From the IMG/VR virus record IMGVR_UViG_3300045988_156735: DNA of 30,204 nt; one strand, 5' to 3'. Shown piece by piece: positions 2,803 through 11,006 of the stretch; position 1 is the first letter of the stretch; each line of letters starts with the position of its first letter. The position numbers were made by a program, and so were the translations under genes. This DNA comes from a virus (lineage: Duplodnaviria > Heunggongvirae > Uroviricota > Caudoviricetes). A model generated the notes under the pieces. That model saw nothing but the letters and a program-made list of their open reading frames with translations, did no database searches and was not told where the DNA came from.

Positions 2803-3331
2803 GATTTTTAACAGCATTCTTGGAAAAGAGGGCGGCTATGTGGATCACCCTGACGACAAGGGAGGCCCAACAATGTGGGGCATTACTCAGAACACTGCCC
2901 GTGCTCATGGATACCGTGGCGATATGCGCGATTTAACCCGCGAACAGGCACTGATGATTCTTGAAGGTGATTATTGGTATGGACCTCGTTTTGACCAAGT
3001 GGCGCAATTTTCCCCTGATATTGCGGCGGAGATGTGCGATACGGGCGTCAACATGGGGCCGACTGTGGCGACGAAGATGCTTCAACGTTGGTTGAATGTT
3101 TTCAACCGTGGCGGGAAGTTGTATCCAGATATGGATGTGGATGGGCGAATCGGCCCGCGCACCATTGCGGCATTACGTGCTTATCTTGGGAATCGGGGAA
3201 AAGACGGCGAACGGGTAATGCTGACGGCCCTGAACTGTACGCAGGGCGACCGTTATCTGGACCTGGCAGAGAAACGCGAAGCAAATGAGTCGTTTGTCTA
3301 TGGCTGGATGAAAGAGCGAGTGGTGGTATGA
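2789..3331 (+). CDS. Endolysin, glycoside hydrolase family 108-like N-terminal domain with C-terminal peptidoglycan-binding domain
   Basis: N-terminus EGGYVDHPDDKGGPTMWGIT is the hallmark I recall for GH108; C-terminal region resembles PG_binding_3; sits between holin and spanins. Confidence 0.8.
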   Translation: MTKDEIFNSILGKEGGYVDHPDDKGGPTMWGITQNTARAHGYRGDMRDLTREQALMILEGDYWYGPRFDQVAQFSPDIAAEMCDTGVNMGPTVATKMLQRWLNVFNRGGKLYPDMDVDGRIGPRTIAALRAYLGNRGKDGERVMLTALNCTQGDRYLDLAEKREANESFVYGWMKERVVV

Positions 3332-3606
3332 CTGGTTTGAAAGCCGTTTTGTCATTTATCGGCACCATTATATTGGTTGCATTCGGCGCATTTGGTTTTG
3401 GTCGTATGAAGGGGCGAGAAAAGGCCGAAGATGAAGCTGAAAAGCAGCGCATTAATGAGAATGCAGCCGCCGTAAAAGCCACTGCGGAGCGGCGTATAGA
3501 AGTGACAAAAGAGGTGGGGAATGTACAGCAGAGTGTTAACCATATGGCTGATGACGATGTTGATCGCGAGCTGCGGGAGTCGTGGAAGCGTCCCGGTGGT
3601 GGTTGA
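3328..3606 (+). CDS. Rz-like i-spanin
   Basis: 92 aa; ATG overlaps the endolysin stop (ATGA); N-terminal transmembrane helix (LKAVLSFIGTIILVAFGAFGF) then a charged coiled-coil-like region. Confidence 0.65.
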   Translation: MTGLKAVLSFIGTIILVAFGAFGFGRMKGREKAEDEAEKQRINENAAAVKATAERRIEVTKEVGNVQQSVNHMADDDVDRELRESWKRPGGG

Positions 3607-3730
3607 TACCGCCTGTGATTGGGTAAAGCCCATCTACCTGACTGATCACGATATCGATGTTATGGACCGCCAGACAAAGAAAGATATTCTGGCTCATAAC
3701 AGGGCATGGGAAATCAACTGCCCCAAGTAA
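3521..3730 (+). CDS. Rz1-like o-spanin lipoprotein, overlapping the 3-prime end of Rz in the +1 frame
   Basis: ORF starts inside Rz in another frame; signal peptide with lipobox LIASC (MYSRVLTIWLMTMLIASCGS); GAGGTGGGG upstream of ATG 3521. Confidence 0.6.
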   Translation: MYSRVLTIWLMTMLIASCGSRGSVPVVVDTACDWVKPIYLTDHDIDVMDRQTKKDILAHNRAWEINCPK

Positions 3731-3762
3731 TATATATTTCTATAATTATATAAATATATAGT
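3731..3762. repeat. AT-rich alternating TA block containing AATTATATAA, left boundary of the tRNA/methyltransferase cassette
   Basis: tatatatttctataattatataaatatata directly after the Rz1 stop; the same 10-mer recurs at 4872-4881. Confidence 0.5.
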
Positions 3763-3899
3763 TACAACATTCTATGCGCTTTTCTCATGAGCGCACGCAT
3801 CAACCATGTTTGTCTGATATGCCGCCGCGCCCAAAAATCCTGAATTTATTGGCTGGGATTTTCGTGCGCGGCGCCACACCAGACAAACAGATCAAATAT

Positions 3900-3975
3900 G
3901 GCCCCTTAGCTCAGTGGTTAGAGCAGGCGACTCATAATCGCACGGTCATCGGTTCAAATCCGGTAGGGGCCACCA
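3900..3975 (+). tRNA. tRNA with CAU anticodon (tRNA-Ile2-like; could be annotated tRNA-Met)
   Basis: 76-nt cloverleaf folded by hand: acceptor GGCCCCT/AGGGGCC, D-arm GCTC-AGTGGTTA-GAGC, anticodon arm GGCGA-CTCATAA-TCGCA, T-arm ATCGG-TTCAAAT-CCGGT, discriminator A and encoded CCA. The 5-prime half matches my memory of E. coli ileX. Confidence 0.85.
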
Positions 3976-4283
3976 ATTCACTCTCACACATAAAGATAAG
4001 CGCGGTGGAGTTACTTCCTTCGTGCTCATCTTTATGCGTGCCTGGTGCGCATTTCGGGCGAACGTGGGGCTAAGTTACAGGCAGGGCCTGTTATCCGCAA
4101 AGGGGTAAAAGCTGGAGCGGCACGGAACTGTAGCCGTGTTACCAAAACAGCGTTGTCGGGCGATATCCGGCACACAACAGGCAAGGGCATTAATCAGTCT
4201 GGTTAGTGCCCTTTTCGTTGTGTTTGCTGTAGAGCTGGCCAGCGTTATGACTGCCGGAGATAAGCGCCGGAGGCACAACTAAC

Positions 4284-4871
4284 ATGGAGGCAATTGCATT
4301 GTTTAATCTGATTTATGCAGATCCCCCCTGGGAATACAAAGACAAGTGTAAGGATGGGAATCGTGGAGCTGGTTTTAAGTATCCAACGATGAAAGCTGAG
4401 GAGATTGCTCGTATTCCTGTCTGGCAACTTGCTAATCCTGAATCGTGTTTGTTGGCCATGTGGTGGGTTCCGACTCAGCCAGAAGAAGCGTTGCTGGTGG
4501 TGAAAGCATGGGGGTTCAGGCTTATGACCATGAAGGGCTTCACATGGAACAAATGTGGTAGCCGACAGCCAGATAAGCTGGTGATGGGGATGGGGCATAT
4601 GACTCGTGCGAACAGTGAAGATTGCTTGTTTGCGGTAAAAGGCAAACTGCCGACCCGCCTTGATGCGGGGATCATTCAGTCGTTTACATCGCCTCGTCTG
4701 GAACATTCACGGAAGCCTGATGTGGTTCGTGACAAGCTGGTAAGACTGTTAGGTGATGTTCCTCGTATTGAGCTGTTTGCTCGCGGTGATTTACCTGATG
4801 GCTGGCATGGCTGGGGCAACCAGTGCAACGGAGGTATCCAGTTGCATGATGCTCTCTGGCAAGTGCCATAG
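4284..4871 (+). CDS. MT-A70-family N6-adenine DNA methyltransferase (orphan, no restriction partner seen)
   Basis: 195 aa with the catalytic DPPW tetrapeptide (LIYADPPWEY) near the N-terminus and layout typical of small phage MT-A70/Dam-like enzymes. Confidence 0.75.
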   Translation: MEAIALFNLIYADPPWEYKDKCKDGNRGAGFKYPTMKAEEIARIPVWQLANPESCLLAMWWVPTQPEEALLVVKAWGFRLMTMKGFTWNKCGSRQPDKLVMGMGHMTRANSEDCLFAVKGKLPTRLDAGIIQSFTSPRLEHSRKPDVVRDKLVRLLGDVPRIELFARGDLPDGWHGWGNQCNGGIQLHDALWQVP

Positions 4872-4900
4872 AATTATATAATTATAGATTTATATAAAAA
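4872..4900. repeat. AT-rich block containing AATTATATAA, right boundary of the tRNA/methyltransferase cassette
   Basis: aattatataattatagatttatataaaaa directly after the methyltransferase stop; shares a 10-mer with 3744-3753. Confidence 0.5.
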
Positions 4901-4983
4901 GTGCTTTACAGGTGGGAAAAAAATTCCTAAGGTTATACCCGAAACCGAGCGATACCCGCCCTGGTTAAACCGGAGATAACCCG

Positions 4984-5253
4984 ATGAAAGTACAAGACCG
5001 TGAAGTAGTAAAAAACCTCCTGCAATACCTGACCTCAAAAAACCTGACGGGCAGCGTTGAGTTCCGTGAAGCGTTAAAACATTTCAACGTCACTACGGTT
5101 TATCGTTGGGAAAACCAACATTCTGAAAGACCGTATGTGGTGGATGTTTTTGCGCCTGATATTGAGTGCGGTTTTGAGCGTCATTCATTCAAGAAGAAAC
5201 ATTCCGCTGATGTTTTTTGTGAGGTTGTATGTGCGGCAGGAGATGATGAGTGA
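4984..5253 (+). CDS. Hypothetical protein (89 aa), first gene of a two-gene overlapping pair
   Basis: GGAGA upstream of ATG 4984; stop overlaps the start of the next ORF (TGATG); no recognised motif. Confidence 0.5.
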   Translation: MKVQDREVVKNLLQYLTSKNLTGSVEFREALKHFNVTTVYRWENQHSERPYVVDVFAPDIECGFERHSFKKKHSADVFCEVVCAAGDDE

Positions 5254-5450
5254 TGCGTATTTCCTTCAAACGTGCGACTGAGCAGCAACGCAAAGAGTTC
5301 CTGGCTGATGATGTAGCGGCCGTTTATGACCTCATGAAAGAGGTTGTGGAATCAGGGAACTACACGGCGGCAAAGATGCTTAAACTGCAATTCTTGCTGG
5401 GCGATCTGAAATACAAATCCGAAGTTGTCGCCGGACGACGCGAGCATTAA
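5253..5450 (+). CDS. Hypothetical small protein (65 aa), second gene of the pair
   Basis: ATG 5253 overlapping the upstream stop; predicted helical, charged; followed by an intrinsic terminator. Confidence 0.45.
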   Translation: MRISFKRATEQQRKEFLADDVAAVYDLMKEVVESGNYTAAKMLKLQFLLGDLKYKSEVVAGRREH

Positions 5451-5472
5451 ACCGTAACGATAACGAACAACG

Positions 5473-5500
5473 AGCCTCGGCAATTGCCGGGGCTTTTTTA
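5473..5500 (+). terminator. Rho-independent terminator
   Basis: Near-perfect palindrome AGCCTCGGCAA/TTGCCGGGGCT centred on AATT, followed by TTTTTT. Confidence 0.6.
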
Positions 5501-5524
5501 CATCCAGACAAAGGAGAACATGGG

Positions 5525-5980
5525 ATGCCTTCGACAAGCACCAAAAAAGAAATGGCGATTAGTGATGTGCTTTACGCGCTTTCGATTATGTGTGACGGAG
5601 CAATGATGAGGATGAAAGTCCTCCATGAAGCATACGGAAAAAGTCACGATGAGGCAGCCAAAGAGTGCCTGAATGAGATTGTGGACTTCCTTGATAGTTA
5701 TCGGTCGATGATAGCTCTCGATAACCAGCCGCAAGCCGAAGAATGCCAGAAGCGCGAGTATAAAACGATATATGGGAATAAGTTCTCCTGTCTAAGCGAG
5801 TTGGCTGCAAAGGTGGCCGACATTCTGGAGAACAACGGCGGTCGAATGCGTCAGGTTAGCTGTCTGGCTGAATATGAATCTCTAATCATGTTAGTTGATT
5901 ATTTAGTTGATACCGGAGCTTTACAGCTCAACTGCGTAAGGCTATCTGGTCATCCGATAAAAATGAATGGAAGGATATAA
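5525..5980 (+). CDS. Hypothetical protein (151 aa)
   Basis: AAGGAG 8 nt upstream of ATG 5525; soluble, Cys-containing, no recognised motif. Confidence 0.5.
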   Translation: MPSTSTKKEMAISDVLYALSIMCDGAMMRMKVLHEAYGKSHDEAAKECLNEIVDFLDSYRSMIALDNQPQAEECQKREYKTIYGNKFSCLSELAAKVADILENNGGRMRQVSCLAEYESLIMLVDYLVDTGALQLNCVRLSGHPIKMNGRI

Positions 5981-5982
5981 CC

Positions 5983-6189
5983 GTGGACTTGCCGAGTGAT
6001 TTGTTCTGGTTTCCGCTTCCAATAAGAGATTTGTTGGTATTTCTGGCTGGCGCTTACGTCTGGAGAAAAGCGAAAGACACCTCGTTATCTTTGAGGTTTG
6101 TCTTAGCTATATCGGTAGGAACCGCGCTGGGGACGGCGTATCTCTTGACATTACTGGAGATATTCATTGAAGAATGGATAGTTTCATGA
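5983..6189 (+). CDS. Small membrane protein (68 aa, about two transmembrane helices)
   Basis: GTG start 3 nt after the previous stop; hydrophobic segments LLVFLAGAYVW and FVLAISVGTALGTAYLLTLL. Confidence 0.4.
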   Translation: MDLPSDLFWFPLPIRDLLVFLAGAYVWRKAKDTSLSLRFVLAISVGTALGTAYLLTLLEIFIEEWIVS

Positions 6190-6338
6190 ATGGTGTTGGC
6201 ATTTTTCTGATGGTTGTGGCCGTGTGTTTTTGTATCTCGCTGGTGGTTATCGCTGGTGTCCTGTGGCGCATCTTAGTGGCGCAGAGAGCTTTTCGGCGTA
6301 AGCGGGAGCAATTATTTATTGATAAATTTAGGCAGTAA
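6186..6338 (+). CDS. Small single-pass membrane peptide (50 aa), not in the supplied ORF track
   Basis: ATG 6186 overlaps the previous stop (ATGA); translation MNGVGIFLMVVAVCFCISLVVIAGVLWRILVAQRAFRRKREQLFIDKFRQ has one transmembrane helix then a basic tail. Confidence 0.4.
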   Translation: MNGVGIFLMVVAVCFCISLVVIAGVLWRILVAQRAFRRKREQLFIDKFRQ

Positions 6339-6425
6339 TTGGTCGATTAAAATGAGGCATAAATAAAACAATGTGTCTTTTTTTAAAGGTTGTGTAACAT
6401 TTGCGTTCCATTTAAGGAGGGTAAA

Positions 6426-6833
6426 ATGCGCACCGATCTAGATTATCTAAAAAAGATGCTGACTGTGTTTTTGGATTCAGAAAGCACGTTCATAACAGTA
6501 AATCAACTAAGAGACGCGGGGTTTGATATAGCCTCAGAAAAGGGCATGTTTCATTATATGCAATTGATTGAGCAAGGTTTTATCAGCAATATGAAGATGG
6601 AAACGCGTGATCCTCTGCGTCTTGGCTATGTTAATTTTTTGGCAGGAATGAGGACTGTTGATGTAGATATTAGATTGACTACAGAGGGACAGGATTTTGC
6701 CTGTGCACTAGAGAGCAAAGATGTTTTCGCTAGACTAAAAGAAATTAGCAATGAGCCATTGGCTGTTATGAAGGATGTTGGTGTAGAACTTCTCAAGTCA
6801 TTGGCAAAGAAGAAGTTTGGTTTATCTGATTAG
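6426..6833 (+). CDS. Hypothetical protein (136 aa), possibly winged-helix-like
   Basis: Strong RBS AAGGAGG 5 nt upstream of ATG 6426; AT-rich upstream region; intrinsic terminator directly downstream. Confidence 0.55.
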   Translation: MRTDLDYLKKMLTVFLDSESTFITVNQLRDAGFDIASEKGMFHYMQLIEQGFISNMKMETRDPLRLGYVNFLAGMRTVDVDIRLTTEGQDFACALESKDVFARLKEISNEPLAVMKDVGVELLKSLAKKKFGLSD

Positions 6834-6861
6834 TGCAGATACCTGTTTGCTATTTATTTAT

Positions 6862-6891
6862 AAAACCACCTGCGGGTGGTTTTGTTTTTTT
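6862..6891 (+). terminator. Rho-independent terminator
   Basis: AAACCACC - TGCG - GGTGGTTT hairpin followed by a T-rich run (tgttttttt). Confidence 0.7.
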
Positions 6892-6952
6892 AGCATTACA
6901 GCAGCTCTTGTGCTTACCAGGGGCTGCGATAATGCGCAAACCAAAGCTGCCT

Positions 6953-6996
6953 CATTAACTCCAGCTCGCTGTGGAGTTAATGCTGGTGGCTTTTTT
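6953..6996 (+). terminator. Second hairpin with T-run (possible tandem terminator or structured RNA)
   Basis: 11-bp perfect stem CATTAACTCCA/TGGAGTTAATG with 8-nt loop, then GCTGGTGGC and TTTTTT. Confidence 0.35.
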
Positions 6997-7125
6997 ATTA
7001 CTGGAAGGTGGGCGACCGCCGTCAGTTGCGACCTGACGACAGTCATTCATACCCACAGGGTGCCGTGGATACAAACCGAGGCCCACTTGCTTGCACAAGC
7101 GAGGGGATTTTAGCGGATAAACGGC

Positions 7126-7749
7126 ATGACAAAACATCTTAATGTGGTTTCTTTACCACTTTCTGTGTTGATTGGTTATGAAAAGAACGCTCGCACACAC
7201 TCCGTGGAGCAGGTAGATCAGATTGTTGCCAGCATACAGGAGTACGGATGGACTAATCCGATCCTGATAGACGAGAACAACGTTGTAATTGCTGGTCATG
7301 GTCGAATTGCTGCGGCCACTCAGTTGGGGATGGATGATGTTCCCTGCATTGTTCTGGAAGGGCTAACGGAGAATCAGAAGAAGGCATATCGTCTGGCCGA
7401 CAACCGTATTCCGCTGAATGCTGGTTGGGATGAAGAGCTGTTAAGCGCGGAGCTTGCAGATCTTGCGGCCGATGATTTTGCTCTGGACTCAATTGGTTTT
7501 ACTCAGCGCGAACTGGATAACTTATTGAGTGCGGCGGTCTACGATGACACAGAGGGTATGGATATCCCATTTGAGAAGGATGAGGCCAAATCAGGCGTAA
7601 AAGTTCAGTACCTGTCATTTGGAGGTCATAAAATCCCGGCAACGGATGAGGAAGCGGATCGTTTTGACTGCGCGGTGTCTCGTTATGTTGATGATAATGG
7701 CAGCTATATCGGATTTGTATCCGCATTGCTGGCTGGGGAGGTGTGCTGA
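7126..7749 (+). CDS. ParB-like N-terminal domain protein (paralog 1)
   Basis: 207 aa; ParB/Srx-type block ...NPILIDENNVVIAGHGRIAAATQLG...; about 60 percent identical by eye to the ORF at 10416-11006 over the N-terminal 100 aa. Confidence 0.65.
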   Translation: MTKHLNVVSLPLSVLIGYEKNARTHSVEQVDQIVASIQEYGWTNPILIDENNVVIAGHGRIAAATQLGMDDVPCIVLEGLTENQKKAYRLADNRIPLNAGWDEELLSAELADLAADDFALDSIGFTQRELDNLLSAAVYDDTEGMDIPFEKDEAKSGVKVQYLSFGGHKIPATDEEADRFDCAVSRYVDDNGSYIGFVSALLAGEVC

Positions 7750-9122
7750 TGCTTCACCTCAATTACGACATAACGCACCTACGCGGCGCGGAATATAACC
7801 CGCGTTTTATCGGTGAGGATGATCTTGCGAGGCTGGCGGAAAGCGTCAGGGAGCTGGGGCTTGTGAAGCCATTGATAGTGCGCGGCGATTTGCTGGTGGC
7901 GGGACACCAAAGGACGAAGGCGCTACGTAAGTTGGGAATAACGCGTGCTGCGGTGTATGTGTTGCCCTGTGAAACGACGGTATACGACGAAGTACGGTTT
8001 AACCAACTGCATAACGGAACGGATTTTGATAGCGGAGATGAGCGTTGCAGGGTGTCCGGTCTGGAAGATAAGCATGGTTTTGTTCAGGTATCGGCAAGCC
8101 AGATCTCAGGCAATATGCGCGCGAAAATGGCATATGTTCGAAAGAACATAGCGGAACTGGTTATCAAGTATGGTCCGTGGGGTGGTTGTGTTGCTACTCA
8201 GTCTGGTGAGGTTATTCACTGTGCTCAGTATGCATTAGCAGCGAAAATGACGCGCACACCGCTAACGGTGTTTGTGATCCCTGATGTTGAGAAGGAAAAA
8301 TACCAAAGTTATCTGAATAAAACTTATGGTGTATTTGAGTATTCTCATCTGGAGAAAACAACATACATCCAGACGTATGCGCAGCTTATGCGGTTGCGTA
8401 ATGGTGGCAGCCTGAAATCAAATCTGTATGAGTCGTTGATCCTCCCGATCATTGCCAAGACGCCAAGAGGAATTGATTTTGGTTCGGGGCAGGGAGACTA
8501 CGCGCGAATGCTCAGGGCAAAGGGATATAACCTGCATGATCTCGAGCTTTTCCGCCGTAAGGGCGCTGGAAACACTCTGGATAGGGCCGCAACAAACCGG
8601 ATGATTGATACGCTGGTGGACGACTTAAAAACGCGAGGGCGTTATGACTACGTGATTTGCGATAGCGTTTTGAACTCGGTCGATAGTGTCGAGGCTGAAT
8701 GGTCCGTTCTGACGGTTCTAAAAGGCCTGTGTAAAGCTGGTGGGTCAATATTCTTTTCTGGTCGTAGCCGTGGAGAGCTGGAAACAGTCCTGAAGCAAAC
8801 ACAAGCGGCGAGTTCCAAAAGCCGGCTTTATTTTATTGATCATAACGGTTTTACCGCGTTGTACCGGAAGGGGCACTGGTTTTACCAGAAGTTTCACTCT
8901 GATGATGAAGTGAAGCAGTTGTGTCGTGTACATGGTTTCAGGATTAAGCGGTCAATATTCAACTGTAAGAGCTGGTATTTGCACGTCATTAACGATGATT
9001 CCCTTAGTTGGGCGAGTCTGGAGAAAGCTGTTCGTTTTGAGTTTGAGTTGCCGTTGCCTGGTGGTTCAACAATCGGACGATCTGATGATGTGCTGGCGGC
9101 TTTCCGGCCGTTGATTAAGTAG
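7749..9122 (+). CDS. Fusion protein: ParB-like N-terminal domain plus C-terminal class-I SAM-methyltransferase-like domain
   Basis: ATG 7749 overlaps the upstream stop (ATGA) with GGGGAGG 9 nt upstream; N-terminus LIVRGDLLVAGHQRTKALRKLG (ParB-like); C-terminal half has IDFGSGQGDY (glycine-rich SAM motif I-like) and YDYVICDSVLNSV; no DPPY/NPPY-type motif seen. Confidence 0.55.
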   Translation: MLHLNYDITHLRGAEYNPRFIGEDDLARLAESVRELGLVKPLIVRGDLLVAGHQRTKALRKLGITRAAVYVLPCETTVYDEVRFNQLHNGTDFDSGDERCRVSGLEDKHGFVQVSASQISGNMRAKMAYVRKNIAELVIKYGPWGGCVATQSGEVIHCAQYALAAKMTRTPLTVFVIPDVEKEKYQSYLNKTYGVFEYSHLEKTTYIQTYAQLMRLRNGGSLKSNLYESLILPIIAKTPRGIDFGSGQGDYARMLRAKGYNLHDLELFRRKGAGNTLDRAATNRMIDTLVDDLKTRGRYDYVICDSVLNSVDSVEAEWSVLTVLKGLCKAGGSIFFSGRSRGELETVLKQTQAASSKSRLYFIDHNGFTALYRKGHWFYQKFHSDDEVKQLCRVHGFRIKRSIFNCKSWYLHVINDDSLSWASLEKAVRFEFELPLPGGSTIGRSDDVLAAFRPLIK

Positions 9123-10048: not shown

Positions 10049-10419
10049 GGTTAAAAGTTGCGGTAAAAGAAATTTACTCATCTCATTGAAAAATATCGGG
10101 AAAACGTGATTTTTTGCTGTATTTGTGCTGGTAAAAAGAAAGTAGAAAATTTTCTTTTAGATCATCAAGATACGCGCAGATCTTTAACCAATGTGATGTT
10201 GTTCTGATAAAAATCGTTATAAATCATGCAAATACATCCAATCTTTTAACCAAAACACCATCTCAAGATCCTTTTTACTTATAAAAACTTAATAAAATCA
10301 GATGATTATGCTGGTTTGTGTGATTTTTTATGAGTAAAAAGATCGTCATTTTTCTCTTTTAGTATCAATAAGTTAAACAGTTTTCTTTAACCTGTTGTGT
10401 TATGGCGGTTAAAAAATGG
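10049..10419. promoter_or_regulatory. AT-rich spacer with iterated TCTTTAACC-type motifs and GATC sites (candidate packaging site, protein-binding array or promoter)
   Basis: Direct repeats TCTTTAACCAA (10181), ATCTTTTAACCAAAA (10241), TTCTTTAACC (10383); inverted GGTTAA copies at 10049 and 10407; GATC at 10160, 10179, 10267, 10341; no credible ORF. Confidence 0.4.
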
Positions 10420-11006
10420 CTCTAAAAATCGAATATTTACCAGTCGGTAAGCTGCTCAGATACGCCAAAAATTCACGGACTCATTCAGATGAGCAGGTTG
10501 AACAGTTGGTGAACAGTATCCGTGAGTTCGGTTTCACTAATCCTGTGCTGATCGATGAAAAGAATGAACTGATTGCGGGGCATGGTCGGCTTGCAGCAGC
10601 CGAAATTCTGGAAATGGATAAAGTTCCGGCGATTCGGTTGAGTAACCTTTCTGAAAAACAGAAGAAGGCTTACAGGATTGCAGATAACAAGCTGGCCTTA
10701 AATGCTGGCTGGGATATGCAGCTTCTGGCCGAAGAAGTCAAAGAGTTAATGGATGATGATTTTGATATTGATCTGCTTGGGTTTAATGATGCAGAGCTTG
10801 ACGAAATGTTAAGCGATGAACAGCCGCAGGAAGAAGACGATAATTCTTCCCCTGTTGTTCAAATTAAGTACCTGTCTATTGATAAAGAACGTATTCCCGC
10901 GACGGATATGGAAATTGCATTGTTGCTGGATGTTTATCGTCAGTACCACGACGCGCATGAAACGCATGAGGGATTTGTTCAGTATCTTGCTAATGGTTGC
11001 AAGTAA
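10416..11006 (+). CDS. ParB-like N-terminal domain protein (paralog 2), immediately upstream of the terminase genes
   Basis: 196 aa; ...NPVLIDEKNELIAGHGRLAAAEILE...; stop overlaps the small terminase start (TAATG). Confidence 0.65.
   Translation: MALKIEYLPVGKLLRYAKNSRTHSDEQVEQLVNSIREFGFTNPVLIDEKNELIAGHGRLAAAEILEMDKVPAIRLSNLSEKQKKAYRIADNKLALNAGWDMQLLAEEVKELMDDDFDIDLLGFNDAELDEMLSDEQPQEEDDNSSPVVQIKYLSIDKERIPATDMEIALLLDVYRQYHDAHETHEGFVQYLANGCK

Follow-up and report, generated by a model that had tools for sequence, protein, structure and literature searches.

We analyzed a 30,204-nucleotide (nt) stretch of viral DNA (IMG/VR record IMGVR_UViG_3300045988_156735, hereafter the window) that represents a temperate myovirus-type phage-plasmid of ~48 kb, and characterized a cassette of three small genes located between its lysis and packaging genes. 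The cassette encodes a soluble protein of 151 amino acids (aa), a hydrophobic protein of 68 aa and a membrane peptide of 50 aa, here named p151, p68 and p50. On comparative grounds, all three are real genes. Their products probably assemble into a single complex on the cytoplasmic side of the inner membrane. Among possible roles we rank first, at a probability of about 0.3, exclusion or defence in lytic growth, for which they would serve as an accessory complex anchored in the membrane. The cassette is organized as follows.

5511-5516, + strand: Shine-Dalgarno sequence AAGGAG of p151, 8 nt 5' of its ATG, read from the sequence
5525-5980, + strand: p151, soluble, 151 aa, ATG start, from the open reading frame (ORF) call; a hypothetical protein in RefSeq
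5525-5710, + strand: N-domain of p151 (residues 1 to ~62), a predicted helical hairpin, from the alignment and AlphaFold2 (AF2)
5711-5977, + strand: indel-prone linker and separable C-domain (residues ~75-151) of p151, from swap boundaries and distant homologues
5969-5975, + strand: Shine-Dalgarno-like GGAAGGA of p68, within the end of p151, 7 nt 5' of the GTG
5983-6189, + strand: p68, hydrophobic, 68 aa, GTG start 2 nt past the p151 stop
6186-6338, + strand: p50, single-pass membrane peptide, 50 aa, from the ORF call, hydropathy and orthologues

Both the ORF calls and a reading of the sequence agree with the original prediction that these three ORFs are co-linear and translationally coupled at these positions. 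The ATG of p50 overlaps the p68 stop codon as ATGA (6186-6189), and an in-frame upstream ATG at 6174 offers an alternative start that would extend p50 to 54 aa. The GGAG of the p151 Shine-Dalgarno sequence is invariant across five lineages. One of the two small genes had been described as absent from the ORF track, which is true of the track used at the time, where p50 fell under 60 aa; in RefSeq it is p68 that is missing, while p151 and p50 (WP_172906167 and related entries) are annotated. RefSeq almost never records p68, which appears in none of the feature tables examined. A tblastn search with p68 matched 59 PLSDB plasmids, and among the matches listed only 3 of 40 carry a hypothetical-protein feature.

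Distant relatives of p151, with lengths of 323, 251 and 94 aa, were identified by an exhaustive HMMER search. In a Salmonella Weltevreden-type element (locus L021, identical to plasmid NZ_LN890526, and also locus L027), a p151 homologue of 246 or 323 aa is followed by a 67-aa ORF and then by a 50-aa ORF. The 67-aa ORF meets the stop codon of the p151 homologue as ATGA, and the 50-aa ORF overlaps its predecessor by 13 nt. The p68 protein is 42% identical to the Salmonella 67-aa protein over 66 ungapped residues (BLASTP E 3e-20), and p50 is 34% identical to the Salmonella 50-aa protein (BLASTP E 1e-6) and matches its Citrobacter orthologue with an E value of 1e-9. Against the Salmonella type, the Nei-Gojobori ratio of non-synonymous to synonymous differences per site (pN/pS) is 0.385 for p68 and 0.33 for both p50 and p151, with synonymous sites at or near saturation (pS of 0.98 in p68); the flanking MT-A70 and ParB-like genes give 0.11 and 0.06. 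The reading frame of p68 is also intact across a recombination joint that swaps its start codon; in the ATCC 25922-type copies p68 starts with an ATG inside the end of the upstream gene.

The cassette is the fastest-evolving stretch between the lysis and packaging genes. The DNA of window positions 5012-6926 cannot be aligned with the Salmonella-type element by blastn, except for 73 nt around a terminator and ribosome-binding site; its flanks show 75-77% DNA identity, and the flanking genes are 75-90% identical. Between E. coli-type variants, pN is 0.02-0.09 in p68 and p50 versus 0-0.011 in the flanking genes, a difference of roughly ten-fold or more. In one variant pair, non-synonymous and synonymous differences stand at 18:4 in p68 plus p50 versus 2:17 in the flanks (Fisher p 6e-6). 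Pairwise pN/pS values within E. coli, which come from very few sites, range from 0.37 to 0.84 for p68 and from 0.34 to 2.7 for p50; we conclude only that constraint on p68 and p50 is much weaker than on their neighbours, and do not claim positive selection. Substitutions in the membrane segments mainly exchange one hydrophobic residue for another, and the most conserved positions of both proteins are charged juxtamembrane stretches, not the hydrophobic cores. The invariant stretches are LLVFLAGAYVWRKAKDTSLSLRFVLAIS in p68 and RILVAQR...KREQ in p50, and the invariant core of p68 reads LLxFLAxAYVWxKAKxxxLS. The divergent island at 5012-6926 spans the C-terminal part of an 89-aa gene (p89), the p66 gene, the cassette and a DUF2513 gene. 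The positions of p89 and p66 are kept in the Salmonella type at 45% and 36% protein identity, and these two genes may functionally be part of the cassette.

By analyzing the taxonomic distribution of the cassette components, we distinguished constant and variable parts. The element was found in 71 of 5426 complete E. coli genomes (~1.3%) by its family marker, a ParB-methyltransferase pair. Among these marker-bearing genomes, 69 carry p68-p50, 21 possess the C-terminal two-thirds of p151 (which is thus lost in ~70%) and 6 contain the DUF2513-like gene. The N-domain of p151 is common to the 99-, 151-, 246-, 251- and 323-aa forms, and it is accompanied by a p50 homologue in every lineage examined. 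In Citrobacter freundii, a 55-aa p50 homologue lies directly 3' of the 251-aa form, and p68 is absent from the locus, as searched across 8.7 kb. Some E. coli copies (loci L018-L020) have p68 shortened to 64 aa. The C-domain, with the motif YKTxYGxKFSxLSxLA...MLIDxLVDxGxLxLN, also occurs on its own as a 94-aa homologue in an unrelated lambdoid contig (locus L026), two genes past a holin and with no p68 or p50 adjoining. Judged from these comparisons, the constant pair is the N-domain plus p50, p68 is a usual but optional component, and the C-domain is a separable module.

The commonest E. coli form has a 99-aa first gene, composed of the shared N-terminal ~62 residues and a short unrelated tail. 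The very C-terminal end of the long Salmonella and Citrobacter forms is similar in sequence to this tail, SSITISAPVINI (E 0.023). It thus seems that the 99-aa form arose when an internal part of a longer ancestor was deleted, and the 151-aa form when the tail was lost. The boundaries of the C-part swap map to window positions 5706-5990. A second recombination joint lies at ~6312, within the last 8 codons of p50, and differing downstream cargo is attached there. Positions 5650-5760 (p151 residues ~45-75) are an indel hot spot, with variants that include an RRMP insertion, a 9-residue deletion and a 26-residue deletion between two similar A(K/E)EC motifs. In locus L011 (930-1053) and in proteins P0002, P0006 and P0022-P0024, deletions or frameshifts fuse or truncate p68 and p50; in L011, for example, a deletion runs from inside p68 into the downstream gene, and such cases are either real variants or assembly errors.

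The gene directly downstream of p50 in the window is probably in the same transcription unit as the cassette.

6426-6833, + strand: DUF2513-like gene, 135 aa, matching phrog_585 at E 1e-25; the Pfam DUF2513 match is below cut-off

We considered this gene as a fourth member of the cassette and rejected it, as it is present in only 6 of the ~71 E. coli copies. In relatives, the usual gene 3' of p50 encodes a phrog_1935 protein (87-136 aa, unknown function; L003 2811-3221, L021 6121-6384, L024 4964-5269, L026 6304-6708). A phrog_1935 gene also lies 3' of the C-domain-only homologue in L026; the window has the DUF2513-like gene in its place. Wider searches for the cassette added little: three word-index protein searches returned only close relatives of at least 65% identity, two scans of the GTDB species genomes returned no homologues, a metagenome scan found three near-identical loci, and scans of viral contigs added a single divergent locus, L021.

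Hydropathy analysis supports most of the predicted protein types. No hydrophobic, membrane-like segment is seen in p151, in agreement with the proposal that it is soluble. The p50 peptide bears out its description as a single-pass membrane peptide, with one strong hydrophobic segment at residues 4-26 (Kyte-Doolittle 3.1, Hessa-scale sum about -4.5). The tail that follows is basic, RILVAQRAFRRKREQ..., with the conserved stretch RILVAQRxFxRKREQ, and the charge distribution predicts that the N-terminus is out and the C-terminus in. The two-helix architecture proposed for p68 is possible, and its parts fared differently: the segment at residues 40-58 (about 38-60) is a marginal membrane helix (Kyte-Doolittle 1.9, Hessa-scale sum about +0.4), and the N-terminal stretch at residues 7-25, which is broken by P, P, R and D, is not a confident one (Hessa-scale sum about +7.9, and +4.6 for the same stretch of the Salmonella orthologue). 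These Hessa values are simple sums on the scale of Hessa et al. 2005, without position weighting. On its sum the stretch at residues 7-25 would not insert alone, and we therefore treat p68 as having one likely and one doubtful helix.

None of the three proteins belongs to a recognizable functional family, as had been noted before. In PHROGs, p151 belongs to phrog_14707 over its full length (E 5.1e-101, residues 1-151 on positions 1-151 of the 151-position profile), and its first 65 residues also match phrog_8319, which corresponds to the 99-aa form. Both families are without functional annotation and confined to the phage-plasmid lineage, so membership is uninformative on function. At E values up to 1, p68 and p50 gave only noise against the PHROG families and no match to holin families in Pfam, PHROG or NCBIfam. 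Among sub-threshold likenesses, p50 scores 19.1 bits (E 0.001) against the CcmD model TIGR03141, below its cut-off of 25.95, and 12.7 bits against the Pfam CcmD model (PF04995), below its cut-off of 25.6; the Citrobacter copy of p50 approaches FtsL with E values of 0.04-0.09. The C-domain of p151 resembles DUF7343 in 6 of 10 family members (E 0.03, below cut-off), and the 94-aa homologue resembles HTH_60 (E 0.084, below cut-off); these two are families of the winged-helix or HTH kind. The Salmonella N-domain weakly matches DUF1804 (E 3e-3) and phrog_756 (E 3e-4). A small-terminase reading of the N-domain was rejected, as these matches are sub-threshold and limited to two members, and the element already has genes of its own immediately 5' of that for the large terminase.

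AF2 models of p151 reached a mean predicted local distance difference test (pLDDT) score of 51 with a 12-row alignment and of 48 with a 9-row alignment that included distant homologues. The only moderately confident feature is a pair of N-terminal helices at residues 4-37 and 41-58 (pLDDT 60-78), and the C-domain stays below 55. A Foldseek search of the PDB with the better model yielded nothing at E <= 0.001 and generic helical bundles only, and a profile search against PDB sequences yielded only de novo helical-bundle designs at E >= 0.03.

The closest full record of the element is E. fergusonii plasmid pRHB23-C02_4, which is 99.9% identical over the query. Its plasmid part contains RepA, ParA and a RelE/ParE module, adjoined by a repressor-like helix-turn-helix gene. 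The remaining genes form a rightward string that leads from early genes through lysis genes, a tRNA gene and the MT-A70 methyltransferase gene to small genes, ParB-domain methyltransferases, terminase, head and contractile tail. Nearly all long ORFs of the window are on the + strand, and the cassette has the orientation of the entire lytic operon. It sits in a variable accessory stretch, which matches the accessory location originally proposed. The genes that surround it include the following.

3900-3975, + strand: tRNA gene with anticodon CAT, assigned to Met by ARAGORN
4183-4213: terminator-like hairpin 3' of the tRNA gene, from the terminator scan

The label of this tRNA differs among records, being tRNA-Ile in RefSeq annotation of the E. 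coli plasmids and Met in the Yersinia phage record. Three proteins with ParB/Srx N-terminal domains are encoded between the cassette and the terminase (window 7126-9122 and 10416-11006); one of them (459 aa) is fused to a methyltransferase domain, and the genes are strongly conserved, with 81-90% identity to the Salmonella type.

Megablast of the region matched 69 of the 5426 complete E. coli genomes, and 70 of the 71 matching places are on plasmids of ~46-52 kb. Matches in other collections include three phages that plate on Yersinia pestis (vB_YpM_39, 41 and 44) and plasmids of E. fergusonii, Klebsiella aerogenes and Salmonella. The family has relatives in Salmonella, Citrobacter and Klebsiella, as well as infectious Yersinia-plating phages, and the E. 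coli reference strain ATCC 25922 is a carrier of the phage-plasmid. Two candidates were rejected as family members: pSLy3, a 114-kb SSU5-type element, and Yersinia phage HQ103, an unrelated 32-kb phage. A literature search found no published work on the biology of this phage-plasmid family, no paper naming vB_YpM_39 and no data on how the plasmid genes are expressed. Chromosomal prophages alone are considered in a paper on prophage induction in ATCC 25922.

Two terminator-like signals enclose the cassette and the DUF2513-like gene.

5472-5501, + strand: strong intrinsic terminator with a 10-bp G+C-rich stem, a 4-nt loop and T6, ending 25 nt before the p151 start, from the terminator scan
6860-6891, + strand: terminator-like hairpin and T-run closing the p151-p68-p50-DUF2513 unit, from the terminator scan

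The RNA fold of the upstream terminator has an energy of -23.1 kcal/mol (z -3.8), and none of 200 shuffles was as good. This terminator and the ribosome-binding site that follows it are conserved in four lineages, including Salmonella, Citrobacter and divergent E. coli, and no other part of the divergent island can still be aligned as DNA with the Salmonella and Citrobacter relatives. No σ70-like promoter of the cassette turned up in the terminator/promoter scan or in a laxer one, although consensus scans may miss unusual promoters. On the minus strand only one promoter-like site was seen, a weak 9/12 match inside p151, and an Rfam search of window positions 3500-7400 returned no family but tRNA. 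Transcription with the lytic operon by read-through of the terminator is the simplest reading of these sequence signals, and it makes expression in the lysogen unlikely. The co-transcription in the lysogen that was originally envisaged is accordingly doubtful, given the lytic-operon orientation, the terminator 25 nt upstream and the lack of a σ70-like promoter.

In relatives, an intergenic element of ~290 nt lies directly upstream of the p151 homologue (L021 4665-5000, L004 2041-2372, L024 3664-4000). Its sequence identity is 91% among Salmonella, Citrobacter and a divergent E. coli lineage, in which the flanking proteins share only 31-45%. Intrinsic terminators bound the element on both sides, and the one at its end is that found just before p151; the window retains only its last ~50 nt (5455-5524). 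It has no Rfam match, is too conserved for informative covariation, and could be a leader or attenuator or a small RNA.

In the arrangement that we favour, p50 would be the anchor, a single-pass peptide with its N-terminus out and its basic tail in, and p68 would be a second, optional membrane subunit whose conserved KAK loop would face the cytoplasm. The p151 protein would be held to them via its conserved N-terminal helical hairpin, with the exchangeable C-domain, possibly winged-helix-like, as the sensing or effector part. The single assembly at the inner membrane face is suggested by the translational coupling, the co-occurrence of the N-domain with p50 and the conserved cytoplasmic stretches. 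The cassette would be read with the lytic operon past the conserved terminator and would act mainly after induction or infection. As a guess, the cassette may have an accessory function in conflicts at the envelope, for instance to exclude or abort competing phages while lytic growth is under way. Such a function fits the evolution of the cassette, much faster than that of its neighbours, as well as its optional parts and its recombinogenic accessory slot. The superinfection-exclusion proteins Imm and Sp of phage T4 offer a parallel: they are very small inner-membrane proteins that are made in lytic infection and are dispensable in the laboratory. The cassette likewise encodes very small, accessory membrane proteins of a phage, with exclusion being a guess in its case. 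No sequence similarity to p68 and p50 was detected, and Imm and Sp have neither a soluble partner nor a coupled three-gene string.

Several observations weigh against this proposal. The three proteins show no similarity to known exclusion or defence proteins at PADLOC, PHROGs, Pfam and NCBIfam thresholds: nothing in Pfam or NCBIfam is above threshold, and PADLOC-DB v2 yields zero families at E up to 1, its only matches in the neighbourhood being those of the MT-A70 gene to type II methyltransferase models. Prophage exclusion genes usually make sense as protection of the lysogen, which a cassette silent in that state could not provide, and fast evolution could equally reflect relaxed constraint on a marginal function. 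The poor AF2 models leave neither the hairpin nor the winged-helix idea secure. The homology of the N-domain between the window and Salmonella is weak: the window copy gave nothing in BLASTP, the ATCC 25922-type copy matches Salmonella at E 9e-5, and HMMER gives a second matched stretch. Sequence and structure evidence does not favour any one of superinfection exclusion, abortive infection and lysis modulation over the others, and the probability left over from the readings weighed here belongs to functions that we have not thought of.

A possible, if doubtful, alternative is that the cassette tunes lysis timing, with p68 and/or p50 being antiholin-like or holin-modulating and p151 a cytoplasmic regulator of the upstream holins, comparable to the action of T4 RI and RIII on holin T. 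The cassette shares the orientation of the lysis genes and lies ~1.9 kb downstream of them, so expression with the lytic operon would be consistent with such a role, and the C-domain-only homologue of L026 lies two genes past a holin. With ~70 aa and two hydrophobic stretches, p68 has the size of a class II holin and recalls pinholins and their antiholins, such as S68/S71 of phage 21; it is encoded downstream of the lysis genes in the same operon, and a cytoplasmic protein together with small membrane proteins could modulate a holin. However, the lysis cassette of this phage (2124-3730) already appears complete, with two holin-family genes, a GH108 endolysin, an Rz-like i-spanin and an overlapping lipobox ORF. 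The two-part spanin is encoded as follows.

3328-3606: Rz-like i-spanin gene
3521-3730, + strand: candidate o-spanin, a 69-aa ORF with a lipoprotein signal (…LIASC…), overlapping the end of the Rz-like i-spanin gene

The candidate o-spanin gene is unannotated in the RefSeq records examined. Because the upstream lysis cassette is complete, p151-p68-p50 would not be needed for canonical lysis. In addition, the p151-p68-p50 genes are not beside the endolysin: a tRNA gene, a methyltransferase gene, two small genes and two terminators intervene. The first of the two p68 hydrophobic stretches makes a poor membrane helix, neither p68 nor p50 has a holin or antiholin family match even at E up to 1, and p68 is dispensable in Citrobacter.

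Another role in lytic growth, which we consider unlikely, is host takeover: the small membrane peptides would bind a host inner-membrane machine such as the divisome, a transporter or a sensor kinase, much as small regulatory membrane proteins or phage inhibitors of division do, with p151 as their cytoplasmic partner. The architecture of p50, a transmembrane segment with a basic amphipathic tail, is that of a small bitopic regulator, its only profile likenesses are CcmD and, for the Citrobacter copy, FtsL, and the position in the lytic operon is consistent. Like p50, CcmD-type proteins have a single membrane helix between a short N-terminus and a basic tail in the cytoplasm. Yet both likenesses are sub-threshold and typical of any peptide with a transmembrane segment and a basic tail, no cytochrome c maturation genes lie nearby, and the resemblance to CcmD is most simply compositional. 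Moreover, host machines are conserved, and a peptide aimed at one should not fall to 34% identity between Escherichia and Salmonella elements, as p50 does, with neighbouring genes at 75-90%.

It also seems improbable that the cassette is a moron expressed in the lysogen from its own unrecognized promoter, protecting the plasmid-carrying cell by superinfection exclusion or by Rex-like abortive infection, which is essentially the reading of the original prediction. Terminators bracket the unit, as is often seen in morons; the region varies and recombines, its joints lie at gene ends, and it evolves fast. The pairing of soluble and hydrophobic membrane proteins calls to mind RexA and RexB of phage λ, where adjacent genes of a temperate phage encode a soluble cytoplasmic protein and its small hydrophobic partner in the membrane. 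RexB has ~144 aa and four membrane helices, and the Rex pair is transcribed with the repressor in the lysogen; in contrast, the membrane parts of the cassette have 50 and 68 aa with one likely helix each and are encoded in a lytic operon behind a terminator, with no match to a PADLOC model. The orientation of the cassette, the short distance of its start codon from the upstream terminator and the failure of two scans to detect a σ70-like promoter argue against lysogenic expression, as does the space upstream of p151 in relatives, which is filled by the conserved ~290-nt element that itself ends in a terminator.

Another reading, for which we see a rather small chance, is that the cassette is an unrecognized, modular, membrane-anchored phage-versus-phage conflict system specific to the phage-plasmid lineage. 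In such a system, p50 with or without p68 would be the membrane effector or anchor and the docking site of the p151 N-domain. What is sensed would be decided by the C-domain, a swappable part that may be winged-helix-like, absent or extended according to the lineage, and in some lineages the highly conserved ~290-nt terminator-ended leader would gate expression.

A toxin-like module, with p50 and perhaps p68 acting as a membrane-depolarizing, type I-like toxic peptide for plasmid stabilization and p151 or an RNA as antidote, is very unlikely. In its size and extreme hydrophobicity p50 is like a type I toxin, and the plasmid element also carries a RelE/ParE-type addiction module. Nevertheless, p50 is translationally coupled in a three-gene string and does not stand alone, no convincing antisense promoter was seen apart from the weak 9/12 minus-strand site inside p151, and the cassette belongs to the lytic operon, far from the replication and partition genes.

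Finally, the idea that p68, p50 or both arose by chance as ORFs of an intergenic spacer and are not genes could draw on the omission of p68 by the RefSeq pipeline, on short-range polymorphism that is mainly non-synonymous (31:13 in p68, 20:4 in p50) and on a few assemblies with frameshifted or truncated copies, but it is already contradicted by the comparative data and hardly tenable: length, position, overlaps and hydropathy are kept where the DNA cannot be aligned, protein similarity and pN/pS (0.33-0.39) point to purifying selection on the encoded products, p68 is open across the joint that replaced its start codon, and the segment is nearly full length in 68 of 71 E. coli elements.

The cassette is best described as a new, lineage-restricted variation on the phage accessory cassettes of very small membrane proteins, and it belongs to no characterized family. 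As p68 is systematically missing from public annotation, it has been overlooked by pan-genome, defence-island and small-protein surveys. The phage-plasmid that carries it is common yet unstudied, conflict functions tend to sit in such fast-evolving stretches, and ATCC 25922 provides a ready experimental host. If the cassette is without phenotype, it would be one more lineage-restricted accessory gene set; if it is an exclusion or lysis-control device, it would constitute a compact system, built of very small membrane proteins and easy to test.

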